A DNA stretch of 49,389 nt from a virus (lineage: Duplodnaviria; Heunggongvirae; Uroviricota; Caudoviricetes): positions 1 to 49,389 of IMG/VR virus record IMGVR_UViG_2851966386_000003, one strand, 5' to 3'. The notes under the pieces are model-generated. The model searched no databases. It had not been told where the DNA came from and saw only the letters and a program-made list of their open reading frames with translations. The translations under genes and the position numbers were made by a program. Shown here one piece after another: positions 10,477-22,982 of this stretch. The number at the start of each line of letters is the position of its first letter. Positions within the stretch are counted from its first letter, which is position 1.

Positions 10477-11254
10477 GAATTCAATCGATGTATACGGTGC
10501 CAGCGGCAAAACAAATGTGCTCAATTTCGAGCCTGAAAACCTGCACCTTGTCACCGATAAGACCCACCCACTTTACGATGAGCGTGTACACCTGCCGATC
10601 GAGGAAGGAATGGTACTGAACATTGCGGAGCTGGGGGTACTGGAGCCAATCATCGTCTGGAAAGACCCTGAAACGGGGCTCACCTGCGTAGTTGTTGGCC
10701 GTCAGCGCGTTAAGCATACCCTGGAGGCAAATAAACTCCGTCTGAAAGAAGGCAAAGACCGACTGCTTGTTCCCGGAGTCGTTAAGCGCGGATCAGCAAA
10801 TCAGATGGCTAAATACATGGTCAGCGAAAACGAAATTCGCAGACCCGATACGCCGCTTGGCCGGGCTAAAAAAATGTCAGATGCCCTCGACCGCGGGCTC
10901 GATGAGGACGACATTGCGGTGTTGTTTGGCTGCAGCGTTCAGACAGTTCGAGCAACGCTCTCCCTCCTCGATGCTACTCAGGCCGTCAGGGAAGCGGTGG
11001 AGGCTGGCACAGTCACCGTTACCCAGGCGCGTCAGCTGGCATCGCTTAAACCCGAAGAGCAGCGGGCAAAAGTGGCAGAAATCAAGCTGGCGACAGCTGG
11101 CGCAACCGGCCATGAAAAAGCCCGGCGTCAGCGTCAGATCCTCGGTGATGCAAAGCCTCGCCTGAAAACCCGCAAAGAAATCACAAAAGCTCTGGAATCT
11201 GCCGAGGGTGAGTATGCGAGCGCACTCCGTTGGGTGCTCGGGGAGGCTGTATGA
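10469..11254 (+). CDS. ParB-like nuclease domain protein
   Basis: ParB N-terminal-domain-like region (IVWKDPETGLTCVVVGRQR) and HTH-like segment; AGGAGG SD 6 nt before ATG 10469. Confidence 0.55.
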   Translation: MAKNSIDVYGASGKTNVLNFEPENLHLVTDKTHPLYDERVHLPIEEGMVLNIAELGVLEPIIVWKDPETGLTCVVVGRQRVKHTLEANKLRLKEGKDRLLVPGVVKRGSANQMAKYMVSENEIRRPDTPLGRAKKMSDALDRGLDEDDIAVLFGCSVQTVRATLSLLDATQAVREAVEAGTVTVTQARQLASLKPEEQRAKVAEIKLATAGATGHEKARRQRQILGDAKPRLKTRKEITKALESAEGEYASALRWVLGEAV

Positions 11255-11454
11255 CAATCGTAAAAACCCATATCGGCACCGTGATCACCAAAGACGGTCC
11301 GAAGGTAAAAAAACTGCACCAGACAGAGCGGATGTGGGTCGTCGGCAAAAACGAGTTTTACAACAAAGAAACCGGGCGCCGTCACTTTGCAGAAAATACG
11401 CGCCGCCGGCTGCTGCTCGACACCATCAAGCCTATTGAGGTGAAGCATGTTTAA
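11251..11454 (+). CDS. Hypothetical phage protein
   Basis: ATGA overlap with upstream stop (translational coupling). Confidence 0.45.
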   Translation: MTIVKTHIGTVITKDGPKVKKLHQTERMWVVGKNEFYNKETGRRHFAENTRRRLLLDTIKPIEVKHV

Positions 11455-11683
11455 ACAGAACGAAAAGGCTATTTCACAGATTGCGGAATATATCCCGCGC
11501 GCCTGCCGGGGTATGCAGCTGCAGGAAGCGAAAGCGCGTCTGGAGAAAAAAATCGCGCTCTATACCGATGACGGCTGTGATGTTGCCGTTCTTAACGCGG
11601 CGTTTGCATCAGCTCTTAACAGTCATACGCGGGAGTCTTTTTTTTCGTGCATTTATGCGCAGCTGCGCGAGGGGGCCAGATGA
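11447..11683 (+). CDS. Hypothetical phage protein
   Basis: 78-aa ORF, start overlaps previous stop. Confidence 0.45.
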   Translation: MFKQNEKAISQIAEYIPRACRGMQLQEAKARLEKKIALYTDDGCDVAVLNAAFASALNSHTRESFFSCIYAQLREGAR

Positions 11684-12347
11684 CAATCACATAACATGCA
11701 CTAAACGAGCTCATTCAGTCGCTTGAGTCGGCTGGTTAGCTGTCGCAATGGGCTGATATGCAGTTCTTGCTGTGGGACGCCCAGCGCCGGGCTGGTATCA
11801 CTGATGATCAAGATTACCCAAGCGATGATCGATGAGCTCGCGGTAAACAAGCAGCACTCATTGCCGGAGCCGAAAGATGGAGAGCCAATACTGCATTTGA
11901 AATAATAGCTACCTTTACTTTTAAAATTACACATTTAATGGTTGTATCTTTTTGCAGCAAGTAGTTAAATCAGTTTATCCCCGCGAGAGATTCGAAAAGG
12001 AGGGCCCAATTTTGTCCGAGTTTTTGTATTCCCCCGCATGCCGCTGCAGAGCACTACATCTGAGCGTCTGACCAGGGGATGAACCAAGATTGGATAGTGA
12101 GAAGAAAGTGGCGCGTAAGGCTGAGCTGAGCGTGCCGGCTGACCCGGATGGGGAGCAGCTTTCGCCGATGTCGTAGTGGACGTCGGTCAATGCATGAAAA
12201 GCTGAGAGGTCAGACAACCAACTTGCCAGAGGAGCATCTCCTGCGTGATGCTTGAGAGCTAACCGAAAGCAATGCGAAAAAGCATAAACTCGGCCTGCCA
12301 ATCGTCCTTATTATCCGCCTGATAGCAGTTTGTGACTGGGAGTGGAT

Positions 12348-15434: not shown

Positions 15435-15731
15435 ATGGCGAATCTTCGCAAAGCGGCCCGAGGCCGCGAATGCACAGTACGTATTCCTGGGTACTGCAAT
15501 GGCAATCCCGAAACCAGTGTGCTGGCGCATTACCGTCTGGCGGGAACGTGCGGCACAGGATGCAAGCCTGACGATACTCAGGGCGCTATTGCCTGCAGTG
15601 CTTGCCACGATCTCATTGATGGCAGAAAGAGAACCACCGATTACACCCGCGACGAACTGCGCCTGATGCATGCCGAAGGCGTGCTCAGAACTTTGGCTAT
15701 ATGGAAACAAGAGGGGTTACTGAAAGCATGA
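15435..15731 (+). CDS. YbcO-like Cys-rich putative nuclease
   Basis: Product resembles, from memory, DLP12 YbcO family (ANLRKAARGRECTVRIPGYCNGNPETSVLAH...ACSACHDLIDG); directly upstream of Q-like gene. Confidence 0.55.
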   Translation: MANLRKAARGRECTVRIPGYCNGNPETSVLAHYRLAGTCGTGCKPDDTQGAIACSACHDLIDGRKRTTDYTRDELRLMHAEGVLRTLAIWKQEGLLKA

Positions 15732-16543
15732 AACTCGAAGCATCCTTAAAACATTTCAGCCCTCAGGGTATGCACATCAGCGACGATGTGAGAAGCACAT
15801 CACCTGATCGCCTCAACGGTACGGATGTTATGGCTGGTATTGGGGTGACAAGCAGCAGGGCAAGGTTCGGACTGGCAGCGTTCTTTGGAAAGACTGGCAT
15901 CAGCAAGACTGATGAGCAGTTGGCCGTCCAGGCGCTAGCACGGTATGCGATTGAAACCGCACCGAAGAACGTACGCAAAACCGCGGGTAAAGAGCTGGGG
16001 CACTGCTGCCTGATTTTGGCGAAGTTTGCTTTTGCGGAGTATTCCCGTTCAGCTGAAACAACGGGAGCCTGCAGGGTATGTAATGGCACCGGACAGATTG
16101 AAACCACTACCACAGAACGCAAAGTTTCTAATCCGTGGGGCAAAGCACCATATTGGGCTAAAAAATCTCGTGCTGTCTGTCCTTCCGACTGGGATAAGTG
16201 GACTGAAGTCACAGCCGCCTTCAGCGCTAAGTGTGAAGCCTGTGACGGTAAGGGGAAAATAAATGCTCGCTGTCGCTGTGGTGGTTCTGGCCGGGTTCTG
16301 GACCGCAAAGCGACAAAAGAGCAGGGAGCACCAGTATATAAAATCTGTGAACGCTGTTCGGGGAATGGCTTTTCAACGATGCCGTCTACTGCTGCTTATA
16401 AAGCGATTCTGACGCTTATCCCAGACCTGCACATCAGAACATGGACACGCAACTGGAAACCTTTCTGCGATGCGCTGGTGGACCTGTGCTGGAAGGAAGA
16501 GGAGAGGGCAGATAAAGAGTTTCAACGAGCAACAGCTGATTGA
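15728..16543 (+). CDS. Putative late antiterminator Q, with four CxxCxGxG zinc-finger repeats
   Basis: Position upstream of pR'/tR'-like elements and lysis genes; repeats CRVCNGTGQ, CEACDGKGK, CRCGGSGR, CERCSGNGF; ATGA-coupled start. Confidence 0.55.
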   Translation: MKLEASLKHFSPQGMHISDDVRSTSPDRLNGTDVMAGIGVTSSRARFGLAAFFGKTGISKTDEQLAVQALARYAIETAPKNVRKTAGKELGHCCLILAKFAFAEYSRSAETTGACRVCNGTGQIETTTTERKVSNPWGKAPYWAKKSRAVCPSDWDKWTEVTAAFSAKCEACDGKGKINARCRCGGSGRVLDRKATKEQGAPVYKICERCSGNGFSTMPSTAAYKAILTLIPDLHIRTWTRNWKPFCDALVDLCWKEEERADKEFQRATAD

Positions 16544-16795: not shown

Positions 16796-17422
16796 ATGGC
16801 GTTAAAAGATATTTTTGTGCGAACCGAACCTCACAGACGGCATTATGGTGTTGCATTGTTTATCGGGCTTATTTCTGGGGTGGTTTCAGCATTTGTTAAA
16901 TGGGGTGCAGAAGTACCATTACCACCGCGTAGTCCTGTCGATATGTTTACCAGTGCCTGTGGACCAGAGTCATTAATTCGAGCTGCCGGGCAGATTGATT
17001 GTTCCAGAAACTTCCTTAACCCTCCTTATATTTTTCTGCGTGATTGGTTAGGGCTGGCCGATCCAAATGCGGCTGTCTATACCTTTGCCGGACATGTGTT
17101 TAACTGGGTAGGTGTAACGCATATCATATTCTCCATCGTGTTTGCGGTTGGGTATTGTGTAGTTGCCGAGGTGTTTCCAAAAATCAAGCTGTGGCAGGGT
17201 TTACTTGCAGGTGCACTCGCACAACTGTTTGTCCATATGATTTCGTTTCCGCTTATGGGCCTAACCCCACCGTTGATTGAGCTTCCATGGTATGAAAACG
17301 TTTCTGAAATATTTGGTCACCTGGTGTGGTTCTGGTCAATTGAGATAATTCGCCGGGATCTGAGAAACAGAATTACGCACGAACCGGATGCTGAAGTTTC
17401 TCTGAATTCAGCATTCAGATAA
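16796..17422 (+). CDS. yagU: YagU-family inner membrane protein (DUF1440)
   Basis: 208-aa product near-identical over long stretches to E. coli YagU (from memory). Confidence 0.85.
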
Positions 17423-17468: not shown

Positions 17469-17548
17469 GCCTGTGATTAGTCGCTCTTCGATAGCAATGT
17501 ATGCAGAGTGTATTGACGCTAGCTATGTTTACAGCATAACGTATTGAT

Positions 17549-17657
17549 GTGGTGAATCCCCCTATGCGGAGGGGCGACCAGTCAGTTACAGAAACCTGTA
17601 AATGCAGCGCGGCCATGCCGACTGGGGCATGCTCACCGGGAGGCACCCGGCACCACA
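17549..17657 (+). repeat. Copy 1 of ~108-nt structured repeat element (candidate ncRNA or recombination site)
   Basis: gtggtgaatccccctatgcggaggggcgaccagtc...gactggggca...ccgggaggcacccggcaccaca; shares conserved 5' and 3' arms with copy at 20245..20351. Confidence 0.6.
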
Positions 17658-17816
17658 CTGCCACATAACATATTTAAGATTTATGGAAGGTTTACTTCTG
17701 CGGTTGCCCTTCTATGTTTATAGAACGTAACGGCAAAAGTGAATGCTTCCTGGTAAATCGGTAGCTCGGACTATTAGGAGTGGCTTCGTTTCGTTACTAC
17801 CTAGAATGCCTACTTT

Positions 17817-18020: not shown

Positions 18021-18332
18021 ATGGCAAAGCATATGCAAGACAAAGAGAGCATGGCCGGAATCACCTGGCTGGCTCTGCTGATCATTGCTGGTTGGGGCGG
18101 CCTTGTCCGATTCCTGATGGATGTGAAGCAGGGCAAAGCAAAATGGAGCTGGATAAATGCCTTTGCGCAGATAGTGGTCTCTGCTTTCACTGGCGTCATT
18201 GGTGGGCTAATCAGCATTGAAAGTGGGCTGAGTATTTACATGATACTGGCCACTGCCGGTGTCAGTGGTGCTATGGGATCCGTAGCGCTTACGTATTTCT
18301 GGGAACGAATTACCGGAGTGAAAGCACAATGA
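18021..18332 (+). CDS. Holin
   Basis: 103-aa product with TM segments and charged C-terminus, possible dual start (MAKHM); GGAGGTG SD; directly upstream of endolysin with ATGA overlap. Confidence 0.7.
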   Translation: MAKHMQDKESMAGITWLALLIIAGWGGLVRFLMDVKQGKAKWSWINAFAQIVVSAFTGVIGGLISIESGLSIYMILATAGVSGAMGSVALTYFWERITGVKAQ

Positions 18333-18868
18333 CAGCAGACCAGATTATTGAAGGCATCCTGGGAAAAGAAGGTGGGTATGTCGATCACCCTTCTGACAAA
18401 GGCGGACCAACCCGCTGGGGCATCACGCAGACCACAGCTCGAGCACATGGTTACACCGGTGATATGAGAAACCTGCCCAGGGAAACAGCAAAGCAAATTC
18501 TGCTCAGCGATTACTGGACCGGCCCCCGATTCGATCAGGTGGCAAGTTTATCTACGTTACTGGCAGATGAGCTTTGCGACACTGGTGTGAACATGGGGCC
18601 AAATATTGCCAGTAAGTTTTTCCAGCGCTGGCTCACTGCCCTTAACATGCGCGGGAAGTTGTATCCCGATCTGATCCCGGATGGAGCCATTGGCCCCCGA
18701 ACCATCACCGCGCTTAAGGGATATCTTTCTGCCCGCGGGAAAGAGGGGGAACAGGTTCTGTTGCGTGCGCTGAACTGCAGCCAGGGTGCCAGATACCTCG
18801 AACTGGCGGAGGGCCGCGAAGCCAACGAGGATTTTCTCTACGGCTGGGTTAAGGAGCGTGTCCTGTGA
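18329..18868 (+). CDS. Endolysin, GH108 N-acetylmuramidase with peptidoglycan-binding domain
   Basis: N-terminal GH108 signature (EGGYVDHPSDKGGPTRWGIT). Confidence 0.85.
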   Translation: MTADQIIEGILGKEGGYVDHPSDKGGPTRWGITQTTARAHGYTGDMRNLPRETAKQILLSDYWTGPRFDQVASLSTLLADELCDTGVNMGPNIASKFFQRWLTALNMRGKLYPDLIPDGAIGPRTITALKGYLSARGKEGEQVLLRALNCSQGARYLELAEGREANEDFLYGWVKERVL

Positions 18869-19212
18869 AGATGATCATTTTCGCTTTGCTCGTGCTGGTG
18901 GCTGTGCTCGTTCTGTTACTGCTGCGCAAATATACCCGGCTGGAGTTCGTTGCCCATGCCAGCCTGCTGCTGAAAACGTGGTCTGTAAAGCTGGGGGCTA
19001 TCGGTGCGCTGGTTGGCATGTGGGTGCAGTCGTTCCCGGATGCTGCGCTGCACGCCTGGGCGATGCTGCCGCCGGACATTAAAAACATTTTGCCTTCAAA
19101 CATCGTGGCACTGATTAGCCCTGCGCTGGTGGTGCTGGCGGTGCTTTCGCAATACGTACGCCAGCCAGCATTGAAAGCTAAGGCCGACAAACTGAAGGAG
19201 CCGCAGCAATGA
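18865..19212 (+). CDS. Lysis-associated membrane protein (possible antiholin/LysA-like)
   Basis: 115-aa product with two hydrophobic helices; lies between endolysin and spanins. Confidence 0.45.
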   Translation: MKMIIFALLVLVAVLVLLLLRKYTRLEFVAHASLLLKTWSVKLGAIGALVGMWVQSFPDAALHAWAMLPPDIKNILPSNIVALISPALVVLAVLSQYVRQPALKAKADKLKEPQQ

Positions 19213-19484
19213 GCTTAGAAATTATTGCTGGTCTGGTGGTCGTCATCCTGGGCGCTATCGCTGGCGCGTTCGGCATAGGTCATGCTCGCGGGACCAGTAA
19301 GGCGGAAGCCAAAGCCGAGCAGCAGCGTACCGAAGAGAACGCCACCGCTACCATCGCTGCGGCAGAACGTAAGGCGGAAGTTGTGAAAGGGGCCAGTGAT
19401 GTACAGGAAGACGTTAAGCGTATGGGCGATGACGATGTTGATCGCGAGCTGCGCGAAAAGTTTACCCGCCCCGGTAGTCGTTGA
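19209..19484 (+). CDS. i-spanin (Rz-like)
   Basis: N-terminal TM helix then charged, coiled-coil-like region; contains overlapping out-of-frame lipoprotein ORF. Confidence 0.55.
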   Translation: MSLEIIAGLVVVILGAIAGAFGIGHARGTSKAEAKAEQQRTEENATATIAAAERKAEVVKGASDVQEDVKRMGDDDVDRELREKFTRPGSR

Positions 19485-19620
19485 TATGGCCTGCGGCTGG
19501 GTGAGGGTCATCTACCTGACCGACCACGATATAGACGCGCTGGATATGCAGACCAAGCGTGACATCCTGGCGCACAACAAAGCAGTGCAGGCCAACTGTC
19601 CGAGCATTACCCTTAAATAA
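19396..19620 (+). CDS. o-spanin (Rz1-like lipoprotein)
   Basis: Out-of-frame ORF overlapping 3' end of i-spanin; lipobox LIASC after short signal peptide. Confidence 0.55.
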   Translation: MMYRKTLSVWAMTMLIASCAKSLPAPVVVDMACGWVRVIYLTDHDIDALDMQTKRDILAHNKAVQANCPSITLK

Positions 19621-19824
19621 GGGGAAATGCTCCAGTAAAACAGCGCGAATGCCAAACGTGCAGCGGTTATTAGCGGCGATGATGTGACAGGAACTCAAGG
19701 GCACGGGCGCAGAGCACTGCGAGAGTGTGGTTGTGTAATCAGGTCATGGATCTTGTGTATAGACGTTCTCTGCGACACCAGGGTGACTTAGGCCTTCTTA
19801 CTGGAAGGCGGTAGTTAGAAAGCA

Positions 19825-19853
19825 GGGGTAGTGCCGGTTGACTACCCCTTTTG
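19825..19853 (+). terminator. Rho-independent terminator after lysis cassette
   Basis: ggggtag tgccggttga ctacccc followed by ttttgtg. Confidence 0.65.
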
Positions 19854-19871
19854 TGCAGAATTGGGTAAAAG

Positions 19872-19991
19872 TTAATACCTTTTTTTAAAAGTATTTTTAT
19901 ATTTCTTCGTTTCTCGCAAGTATGAAACCAGTGAACCCACTGCAACTAAAAGAAGAACTACAGCTAACGCTATCATCAGTATGGTTGTCAT
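19872..19991 (-). CDS. Small hydrophobic protein (39 aa), below ORF-track cutoff; type I toxin-like architecture
   Basis: Manual minus-strand translation MTTILMIALAVVLLLVAVGSLVSYLRETKKYKNTFKKRY; AGGAGGG SD 9 nt upstream; one TM helix plus basic tail. Confidence 0.4.
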   Translation of the reverse strand: MTTILMIALAVVLLLVAVGSLVSYLRETKKYKNTFKKRY

Positions 19992-20244
19992 GTGAGTTAA
20001 CCCTCCTAGGGACCATGGATATTATGGTTCGCATGAGGGGTAGTGTGGGATTTAAGTGAGAAAATTCCTAACTGGAATTTTTTCTTAATTTGAAACCTGA
20101 TATGAAACTTTATTGTTGGTTTTGTAATGATTCAATATGAAATGATTAATTATTGTCTGCCAGGATATACAGTTTTCCGAAAGAGGTGTTTTTACTGGTT
20201 ACATCGGATTGACTATGCACTTATCGCATAGCTAATGTAGATGC

Positions 20245-20351
20245 GTGGTGAATCCCCCTGTGCGGTGGGGCGACCAGCCAGGTTTTCTCTTTGAGCACAC
20301 ACGCAGGTCTGTTGGCTGGGGCAGACTTACCGGGAGGCACCCGGCACCACA
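20245..20351 (+). repeat. Copy 2 of ~108-nt structured repeat element
   Basis: gtggtgaatccccctgtgcggtggggcgaccagcc...ggctggggca...ccgggaggcacccggcaccaca; possible hairpin terminator at 20371-20397. Confidence 0.6.
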
Positions 20352-20544
20352 ACATACTGCATAACCCCATAAAGGCCTTCCATTACGGTAGGCCTTTTCT
20401 CTTCTGGTTGTATCTAATACTGTGGGCAGGTCAGCTGGCTTATGCAGGACAGATTATTTTTTCTTATTGAATGCCGCTTCTGGTGTGCTTATATTCTACC
20501 TAAAAATGGGTAGGTGTGTTGTGATTAGAAAATGCTATGCAAGA

Positions 20545-20904
20545 ATGTCTGACCCAGCATCAAATGACAAGCTGACACTGGAAATGCTTGTAACTGACGG
20601 TGGGCGTAAGATTTTTATCTGGGATTTTGATAAAGGGGTGGCAATTTTCTCTGAGGGTATAACAGGTAAGCAGTCTAAATACATAGTGCAAGGTGAAAAG
20701 CATGCAGGGCATATCAATCTTATCAGAGATAATACGATTGAGCGCACTATTTATGGGGTTAAGGAGCTCACCTGTGGAAATGGTGATTCCGGTAAATCCT
20801 CTCCTGTGTTTTGCTCATTGTGCGAGGGGCAGATACTCATAATCGAATGCCAAAAGGCTTTTATAAGAAAACCATTAAGGCTTGATGAACTCACCTTTGA
20901 ATAG
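20545..20904 (+). CDS. Hypothetical protein, AT-rich moron (start uncertain)
   Basis: ORF 20422..20904; weak SD; AT-rich. Confidence 0.3.
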   Translation: MSDPASNDKLTLEMLVTDGGRKIFIWDFDKGVAIFSEGITGKQSKYIVQGEKHAGHINLIRDNTIERTIYGVKELTCGNGDSGKSSPVFCSLCEGQILIIECQKAFIRKPLRLDELTFE

Positions 20905-21829: not shown

Positions 21830-22024
21830 ATGATGCTAGTGCAAAATAATATTTATAATAATTCAGAGTCATATGCTATTCTTTTGTTTAGTATGTGGCC
21901 TGTCCTTATTGTACTTCTTGTCGTGATATCTTGCGCCTTTTACGGTGTATTGATGCATAAAACTGCAATTTGTTGTTTTCTGTCAGCTATGTTCCTTGGT
22001 GTCGCAGGCTGGTTTTATGGATGA
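21830..22024 (+). CDS. Small membrane protein
   Basis: 64-aa ORF with two hydrophobic helices; AAGGA SD. Confidence 0.3.
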   Translation: MMLVQNNIYNNSESYAILLFSMWPVLIVLLVVISCAFYGVLMHKTAICCFLSAMFLGVAGWFYG

Positions 22025-22749: not shown

Positions 22750-22878
22750 TTAACGATGCTCAGGACCATGGAAGTGATCTCCACCATGTCCGCCTCCATG
22801 GGGACCAGGGGGAAGGATACATCCTGAAAGTGACAGCGCACCACAGATCACAAAAACAGCAAGCATAATTCTTTTCAT
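22750..22878 (-). CDS. Small lipoprotein with His/Gly-rich mature region (42 aa), below ORF-track cutoff
   Basis: Manual translation MKRIMLAVFVICGALSLSGCILPPGPHGGGHGGDHFHGPEHR; lipobox LSGC; weak SD. Confidence 0.4.
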   Translation of the reverse strand: MKRIMLAVFVICGALSLSGCILPPGPHGGGHGGDHFHGPEHR

Positions 22879-22982
22879 AATAACTACTGAACTAAAGAGC
22901 CTTAATTCCAAAACATAAAAGTGAATATTTTATGGAGAATCAGTAATTCCTTTTTCTCCCTCACGTTAAAGAGGAATAATCC

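Follow-up and report, generated by a model that had tools for sequence, protein, structure and literature searches.

What does a 39-codon open reading frame (ORF) with a hydrophobic product do on the minus strand of a tailed-phage genome, facing the end of a lysis operon that runs in the opposite direction? The question is raised by positions 19872-19991 of the IMG/VR virus record IMGVR_UViG_2851966386_000003 (Caudoviricetes), whose 49,389 nucleotides form the window analysed here. A first-pass annotation, made from the sequence letters without database searches, had proposed a type I toxin or a small phage membrane protein. We found that the ORF is a conserved gene of a curated small membrane protein family, which agrees with the second proposal in that it encodes a single-pass peptide carried mostly by prophages. 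The gene lies in a cassette that recurs in different genomic contexts and that has a strictly conserved box of the RcsB type upstream of its start codon.

A conserved small membrane protein gene

The coding sequence (19872..19991, minus strand) runs from an ATG at 19991-19989 to a TAA at 19874-19872 and comprises 39 codons and a stop, with MTTILMIALAVVLLLVAVGSLVSYLRETKKYKNTFKKRY (39 amino acids) as its translation. A Shine-Dalgarno sequence (SD), AGGAGGG, is located on the same strand at 20001..20007, with 9 nucleotides between it and the ATG; start codon, SD and peptide are all exactly as the first-pass annotation had described them. The nearest in-frame stop 5' of the ATG lies at 20024-20022 and therefore the ATG at 19991 is the earliest start possible. 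All aligned homologues possess a G-rich SD (CAGAGG, GGGG or AAGGGG) at the equivalent position. The peptide is composed of three N-terminal residues, a hydrophobic stretch of about 22 residues (residues 4-25) and a tail of 14 residues, seven of which are Lys or Arg and one Glu, in line with the single transmembrane (TM) helix and Lys-rich tail noticed before. By the positive-inside rule, the product would be a single-pass protein of the inner membrane with its N-terminus outside and its C-terminus inside.

The peptide scores 40.8 bits against the NCBIfam family NF033853 (“KPN_two_small, small membrane protein”), for which the curated cutoff is 33 bits, and residues 3-38 align with profile positions 2-37 of 37. 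NF033853 was the only match in NCBIfam and in a Pfam copy that lacks PF28118. Pfam PF28118 (“KPN01023”) is precomputed on every relative found, including the identical protein in loci L001-L006 (L numbers denote the homologous loci compared here). The window ORF has the same length and architecture as the members of this family from Klebsiella and Raoultella, and there is no difference at the protein level. On 176 contigs, NCBI names the identical sequence “MULTISPECIES: small membrane protein [Enterobacteriaceae]”, and the identical protein is indexed in 379 blocks of an assembly collection. The ORF had been called unlisted, which holds for the track of ORFs of at least 60 amino acids that was available then, but not for NCBI; the gene is already catalogued, with an annotation that places it in a curated family without assigned function, and its discovery is not new.

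The family is small. When 1.84 billion representative proteins were searched exhaustively with a profile, just 32 of them reached E<=1e-3, and a word-indexed profile search returned 82 proteins, all named ones being from Klebsiella or Raoultella except for one “uncultured Erwinia”. Among species-representative genomes only two loci were found, one in Raoultella and one in K. pneumoniae, and searching E. coli genomes with the whole region gave no match. The family signature consists of the TM helix, followed by S-Y-[ILV]-[KR]-[DE]-R-[KR]-K and a basic tail that ends in F-K-K-R-[YR], at a length of about 37-41 amino acids; the window peptide reads SYLRETKK...FKKRY at this signature. Conservation of the frame in homologous prophages had been named in advance as a point to verify, and an intact frame of 39-41 amino acids is present in 59 of the 63 homologous loci. 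Pairwise ratios of nonsynonymous to synonymous substitution rates (dN/dS) between eight diverse copies are all 0.05-0.52, indicating purifying selection, and the variable columns are distributed over the three codon positions as 20/13/29. Since the frame is kept in this way and the dN/dS values are this low, the ORF is more than a chance occurrence; it is a real, conserved gene and, judged by its sequence, a member of NF033853/PF28118.

Two observations concern the ends of the frame. The window ORF contains a run of seven A residues at 19880-19886 (codons 35-37), and database variants with longer C-termini of 45-64 amino acids (P0004, P0005, P0012, P0016, P0018 and P0019; also the loci L009, L062 and L063) go back to A-rich runs, close to the 3' end of the frame, that have gained or lost a single base, which could reflect either sequencing errors or genuine slippage. 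In a prophage of E. coli MLI106K4 (L064, 2141-2293, minus strand), the copy annotated as “small membrane protein” (WP_350502026.1) has been given an upstream ATG as its start in RefSeq, resulting in 50 amino acids. Judging from the alignment of the family and from an AAGGGG SD, the second ATG is the true start (39 amino acids), and the annotated start falls within a conserved promoter-proximal GTCCA motif.

A conserved RcsB-type box upstream of the gene

When the regions upstream of the homologous genes are aligned, one invariant block, GTTAGGAnTTTTCTnA, stands out amid diverging sequence about 80 nucleotides 5' of the ATG. In the window this position is occupied by a perfect RcsB box, the pseudo-palindrome TAGGAATTTTCTCA on the minus strand (TGAGAAAATTCCTA on the plus strand) at 20057..20070, which corresponds to -79 to -66 from the ATG. 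The consensus of the RcsB homodimer box is TN(G/A)GAN4TC(T/C)NA, and TTAGGAAAAATCTTA is the flhDC site that was crystallised (PMC7913699). Searching with TNRGANNNNTCYNA gave a single match in the window, at 20057-20070. Among 46 non-redundant loci, 43 have a perfect box, located at -79 to -81 from the ATG; in the plasmid-borne prophage remnant L024 its position is -71, and in E. coli -83. Positions T1, R3, G4, A5, T10, C11 and A14 of the box are invariant and Y12 is T or C, so that variation is confined to N or Y positions, with N positions 2, 6, 9 and 13 varying. The box is 79-100% identical to that of the window, compared to only 40-62% for its 40-nucleotide flanks. The box of the core-genome copy, TTAGGATTTTTCTTA, differs from the crystallised flhDC site solely in three of the four bases of the N4 spacer.

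Divergently from the ORF, the window carries a gene for a small RNA (sRNA) of the STnc100 family at 20217..20405 (plus strand), which raises the question to which of the two genes the box belongs. The box persists in loci without STnc100 (L018-20) and in L024, where STnc100 is located downstream of the ORF; because it is kept where STnc100 is absent or relocated, it belongs to the ORF and not to the sRNA. The other STnc100 copy of the window has no RcsB box.

A promoter is tentatively placed between the box and the SD. The candidate -10 element CATAAT (20021..20026, minus strand; AAnAAT followed by nTCCAT in the family) is semi-conserved in 17 of 19 diverse sequences, and a promoter scan returned CCCACA-17-CATAAT, with a poor -35 element that is consistent with an activator-dependent promoter. 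This -10 tentatively places the transcription start site (TSS) near 20013-20016, which would leave a leader of about 25 nucleotides. RcsB homodimer sites are usually located immediately 5' of the -35 element (PMC5651002). The box ends 30 nucleotides upstream of the candidate -10 and is centred at about -49 from the predicted TSS, a modelled geometry that would be compatible with activation by RcsB, short of proving it. The conserved block itself was also considered as a sigma-70 -10 or -35 element and rejected, as the last base of the would-be -10 varies and a better -10 lies 30 nucleotides away. In a lysogen, expression of the gene would be controlled by RcsB via this putative site.

Several points weigh against assigning the box to RcsB. 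The consensus is degenerate, with 2.4 matches expected by chance per window and one observed, and the argument rests wholly on conservation. The box of rprA is centred at about -43 (fragment about -53 to -33) as compared to about -49 here, which is not textbook geometry. In the L015-17 subfamily the box has one mismatch, no box is present at this position in the core copy of K. aerogenes, and other regulators of the FixJ/LuxR type could bind a similar site. Chance matches and a spacing to the putative -10 unlike that of rprA equally suit a different explanation, which we consider somewhat unlikely, namely that the block is the site of another regulator, or an UP-like or structural element, and that the gene is constitutive or differently controlled. 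The TT of the N4 spacer is invariant as well, although the consensus does not need it, and the left half of the GAD box, which is bound by GadE together with RcsB, is common to the RcsB half-site (PMC2887963); both facts would fit such another element. Conversely, all eight specified positions of the consensus are kept with the variation falling on unspecified ones, the core-copy box equals the flhDC RcsB site apart from its spacer, and the block survives amid upstream regions that otherwise cannot be aligned, all of which favours RcsB.

The cassette and its genomic contexts

Together with its upstream site the gene reads as a self-contained passenger (moron) cassette of about 260 bp, which would comprise the regulator site, a weak promoter, the SD and the ORF, closed off by a hairpin terminator of its own. 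This terminator is a GC-rich hairpin at 19815..19849, with arms of 9 bp at 19824-19832 and 19841-19849 and a loop of 8 nucleotides; it is followed by a T-rich tail on the minus strand (GCTTTCT) and by TTTTGTG on the plus strand. Throughout the clade, the stop codon is followed by this hairpin (GGGG...CCCC and a T-rich tail), also where no lysis cassette adjoins; in L061 an unrelated hairpin takes its place. In other phages, too, the hairpin goes together with the ORF; it therefore serves the cassette itself as terminator no less than it serves the lysis operon, and possibly it ends rightward transcripts as well, acting bidirectionally. No covariation support was found for this hairpin, the stem of which is simply conserved. 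The last lysis gene, a spanin-like ORF with a lipobox, ends at 19620, which is 251 nucleotides from the stop of the small ORF. The earlier description of the ORF as antisense to the end of the lysis operon and its terminator is thus right as to the convergent orientation, but there is no overlap and the hairpin accompanies the ORF.

The cassette is found antiparallel to the late operon of mosaic lambdoid Klebsiella prophages, usually back-to-back with an STnc100 gene, and in 41 of the 46 non-redundant loci most of the neighbouring coding sequence is on the opposite strand. Its slot either separates the lysis genes from the terminase or is the gap from Q to the holin, and it is found there next to lysis cassettes (GH108, GH19, phage lysozyme) and terminases (Terminase_2, Terminase_4, GpA, Terminase_3) that are unrelated to each other. 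Of the loci with the identical protein, some have GH108 and holin_3_3 and others GH19 with holin_3_7/holin_8, and their terminase is either Terminase_2/6N or Terminase_4/TerL. Where a phage has another lysis cassette, the DNA shared with the window begins at 19615-19645; in L007 it is reduced to 19805-20353, at 70% identity. Divergent copies are located between Q and the holin (L007, L009, L014) and in P22-like late regions (L015-17), and others in decayed prophage remnants of K. variicola (L010-13), in the remnant on a plasmid (L024/25) and in the E. coli prophage (L064). Divergent copies at non-phage chromosomal sites lie next to mppA/mpaA/tpx (L018-20) and, in K. aerogenes, next to puuP/puuA (L021-23). 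The cassette occurs in 38 IMG/VR viral contigs, of which many seem to be prophage predictions from genome assemblies, but in none of 50,697 sequenced phage records searched with megablast, blastn and tblastn. The intact, selected copies in remnants and at chromosomal sites argue for a benefit to the host, and not for a role in lysis.

This distribution is also what has to be weighed when a function in the phage life cycle is considered, in which the peptide would act at the inner membrane of the lysogen in superinfection exclusion, as a block of injection or as an antiholin-like modulator of the holin. Small single-pass membrane proteins are common exclusion factors, and the gene is almost always found within the Q-lysis-terminase region of prophages, a slot that collects accessory genes as shown by a gene of the Acb2/Tad1 anti-defence type at about 6430-6830 in L003-L006, some 0.5-0.8 kb from the cassette. 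Matches to PHROG holins are present, but these are weak and at the level of the TM helix (E 0.12-0.18), no PHROG match is significant and no PADLOC model matches the ORF. The gene runs opposite to the late operon and hence is not expressed together with the lysis genes, and its position varies from upstream to downstream of the holin. The absence of the cassette from the sequenced phage records also counts against this reading, and the intact, selected copies in remnants and at non-phage sites point to a function at the level of the host. We therefore regard a phage life-cycle protein as unlikely; as a holin or lysis protein proper, the ORF was rejected on account of the same insignificant E values and its strand, opposite to that of the lysis genes.

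The layout is the classical one for a moron, and a comparable arrangement is known from the bor gene of phage lambda, an independent unit just after the lysis genes that is opposite to late transcription and is expressed from the prophage. The window cassette is in the same slot and in the same opposite orientation. However, Bor is an outer-membrane lipoprotein of unrelated sequence, and the cassette studied here also occurs in the gap between Q and the holin and at non-phage sites.

In the window itself, Q (antiterminator, 15701-16543) is followed by a lysis cassette composed of a holin (18021-18332), a GH108 endolysin (18329-18868), DUF7940 (18865-19212) and a spanin-like overlapping pair (19209-19484 and 19396-19620), of which the second has an LIASC lipobox. 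Between Q and the holin, a gene for a DUF1440 (YagU-like) inner-membrane protein (16796-17422, plus strand) is present as a passenger in the late leader. In the near-identical prophage L001, a bacteriocin module, consisting of a gene with a pyocin-S/cytotoxic domain and a cloacin-type immunity gene (11011-12120), is located just upstream of Q. Between STnc100 and DUF2560, the window contains a 160-residue ORF (20422-20904, plus strand) and a hydrophobic 64-residue ORF (21830-22024, plus strand); neither has a match in NCBIfam, nor does the 160-residue ORF in Pfam, and the region of the latter accompanies the cassette in L003-L006. Just upstream of the gene for the small terminase subunit and antiparallel to the late genes lies a 53-residue ORF (22750-22911, minus strand) whose product has a lipoprotein signal, MKRIMLAVFVICGALSLSGC, and a tail rich in His and Gly; it has no NCBIfam match and may be another moron.

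Possible roles: toxin or modulator of a host membrane protein

The type I toxin reading holds that the peptide depolarises the inner membrane and is kept in check by an antisense or trans-acting RNA, the pair stabilising the prophage or aiding persistence. Candidates for this RNA would be STnc100, a short cis-antisense transcript from 19997-20025 (plus strand) and read-through from the late operon. A peptide of less than 60 amino acids with one TM helix in a prophage fits such a system, and type I systems are known in prophages, with toxins that have extensions of only few residues (PMC12648545). The ORF has a basic tail of 14-15 residues with a conserved motif, which is atypically long. Moreover, the peptide matched none of the known toxin families (Hok/Gef, Ldr, TisB, Ibs, ShoB, ZorO, DinQ and others) at E<=1 in Pfam or NCBIfam.

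STnc100, the only sRNA gene adjoining the ORF, is a candidate partner and a constant divergent neighbour within the clade. Its gene scores 81.5 bits against Rfam RF02076 (gathering score 47), and its near end lies at about -226 from the ATG of the ORF in nearly all prophage copies. Yet the predicted duplexes between STnc100 and the mRNA of the ORF were no better than those of shuffled sequences in four divergent loci (z of -0.2, +1.1, +1.4 and -0.3), the longest complementary word measured 6 nucleotides against 7.5 by chance, and no direct repeats link the STnc100 and ORF regions. STnc100 is absent beside core-genome, remnant and divergent prophage copies. Lacking complementarity and not being the companion of all family members, it was rejected as an RNA antitoxin.

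Other features of the sRNA gene were observed. A second copy, at 17518-17721 (plus strand), scores 71.9 bits against RF02076, and the two copies in direct orientation bracket the lysis cassette and the small ORF; such duplicates could mediate recombination that shuffles lysis modules. STnc100 is located between Q and the holin in L007, L009, L014 and the E. coli locus L064. The copy next to the ORF has a good promoter (TTGACT, 20209-20214; spacer of 18 nucleotides; TAATGT, 20233-20238) and a terminator-like hairpin (20371-20397), and it may be a short late-leader RNA of the pR' type.

The late transcripts converge on the gene and a promoter-like site is present on the antisense strand (TTAACC-17-TATTAT, 19997-20025, plus strand), as a type I system with a cis-antisense RNA would have it. 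This site is found in only 18 of the 46 loci, and promoter-like sites are no commoner in this AT-rich spacer region than in shuffled sequence. The terminator-like hairpin that would end the transcript (20058-20084, plus strand) coincides with the palindrome of the RcsB box, and conservation does not extend to its second arm; a short cis-antisense transcript from the site to this hairpin was consequently rejected as a conserved feature. An exact direct repeat of 10 nucleotides, AGGGGTAGTG, is present in an arm of the terminator stem (19824-19833) and 5' of the SD (20036-20045). A hok-like fold-back, in which the leader copy (CACTACCCCT, 20045-20036) would pair with the terminator stem, was rejected as well, the repeat being confined to the window's clade and absent from L007, L014, L008 and L009; it is probably fortuitous. 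The SD is predicted to be largely paired, with an unpaired probability of 0.10 for a short and 0.25 for a long leader, which could fit a toxin, but its predicted partner is the generic U-rich tail of the terminator.

Type I toxin-antitoxin systems with a divergent sRNA (tisB/istR-1, zorO/orzO, shoB/ohsC) or a cis-antisense RNA (hok/sok, ldr/rdl, ibs/sib) thus resemble the cassette in having a small single-TM peptide next to an sRNA gene on a mobile element. They differ from it in that here the sRNA lacks complementarity, there is no conserved antisense promoter and no toxin homology, and the peptide has a long conserved basic tail. The conserved upstream transcription-factor site is a further difference and suggests that the gene is controlled at the level of transcription. 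Of the original proposal, the size below 60 amino acids and the single TM helix still stand, but the toxin label lacks support from the comparisons made here; the reading is weakened, and we now consider it very unlikely.

Closer parallels are offered by small peptides that act on a larger membrane protein. MgrB and SafA are single-pass peptides that bind such a protein and their genes have a site for a two-component response regulator; RmpD of K. pneumoniae, with 58 amino acids, combines a TM helix at its N-terminus with a positively charged C-terminus in the cytosol and binds the capsule tyrosine kinase Wzc (PMC12648545). MgrB and SafA are not homologous to the window ORF. RmpD shares with it the genus, the architecture and a link to regulators of capsule/envelope circuits (RmpA for RmpD, the putative RcsB site for the ORF), but the ORF is shorter, prophage-borne and not in the rmp locus. 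Similarity to RmpD was not detected, and a permissive tblastn returned no rmp-bearing plasmid, which is a weak test as the low-complexity filter was on.

Overall, the best explanation in our view, to which we give about an even chance, is that the gene encodes a single-pass inner-membrane protein that is carried by an autonomous moron cassette, is activated by the Rcs system and modulates a host membrane protein without killing the cell. In the lysogen, envelope stress or capsule-regulating conditions would lead phosphorylated RcsB, alone or with RcsA, to bind the box and activate the weak promoter. The peptide would then enter the inner membrane, with its short N-terminus outward and its basic tail in the cytoplasm, and would modulate some larger membrane protein or complex of the host in the manner of MgrB, SafA and RmpD, with no killing. 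During lytic growth, late transcription antiterminated by Q would cross the cassette in antisense and silence the gene. This modulatory, non-toxic role is argued by analogy and from the failed toxin tests, and the predicted pairing of the SD, which could also suit translational control of a toxin, is a further reservation.

The searched literature contained no description of the cassette anatomy, the RcsB-type box or the fixed pairing with STnc100, and searches on KPN_01023 and on RcsB combined with prophage and small membrane protein yielded nothing. Together these three constitute a concrete and testable regulatory hypothesis. While the discovery of the gene as such adds nothing, the analysis gives the anonymous “small membrane protein” a form in which it can be tested. 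A portable cassette with a strictly conserved operator of the RcsB type is present in a large share of Klebsiella prophages and is also fixed at chromosomal sites. At its most far-reaching, and here we speculate on what we consider quite unlikely, Klebsiella prophages might spread an Rcs-induced peptide that binds a host envelope machine, such as the capsule export/chain-length system, in the way RmpD binds Wzc, or the Rcs sensor chain, and thereby rewires the capsule/envelope-stress response, the display of phage receptors and virulence traits, the gene having been domesticated repeatedly into the chromosome. If Rcs control and a host target hold true, the cassette would caution against labelling every small hydrophobic prophage ORF as a type I toxin, and it would be a clear example of how a prophage connects a small effector to the envelope-stress/capsule regulon of an important pathogen.

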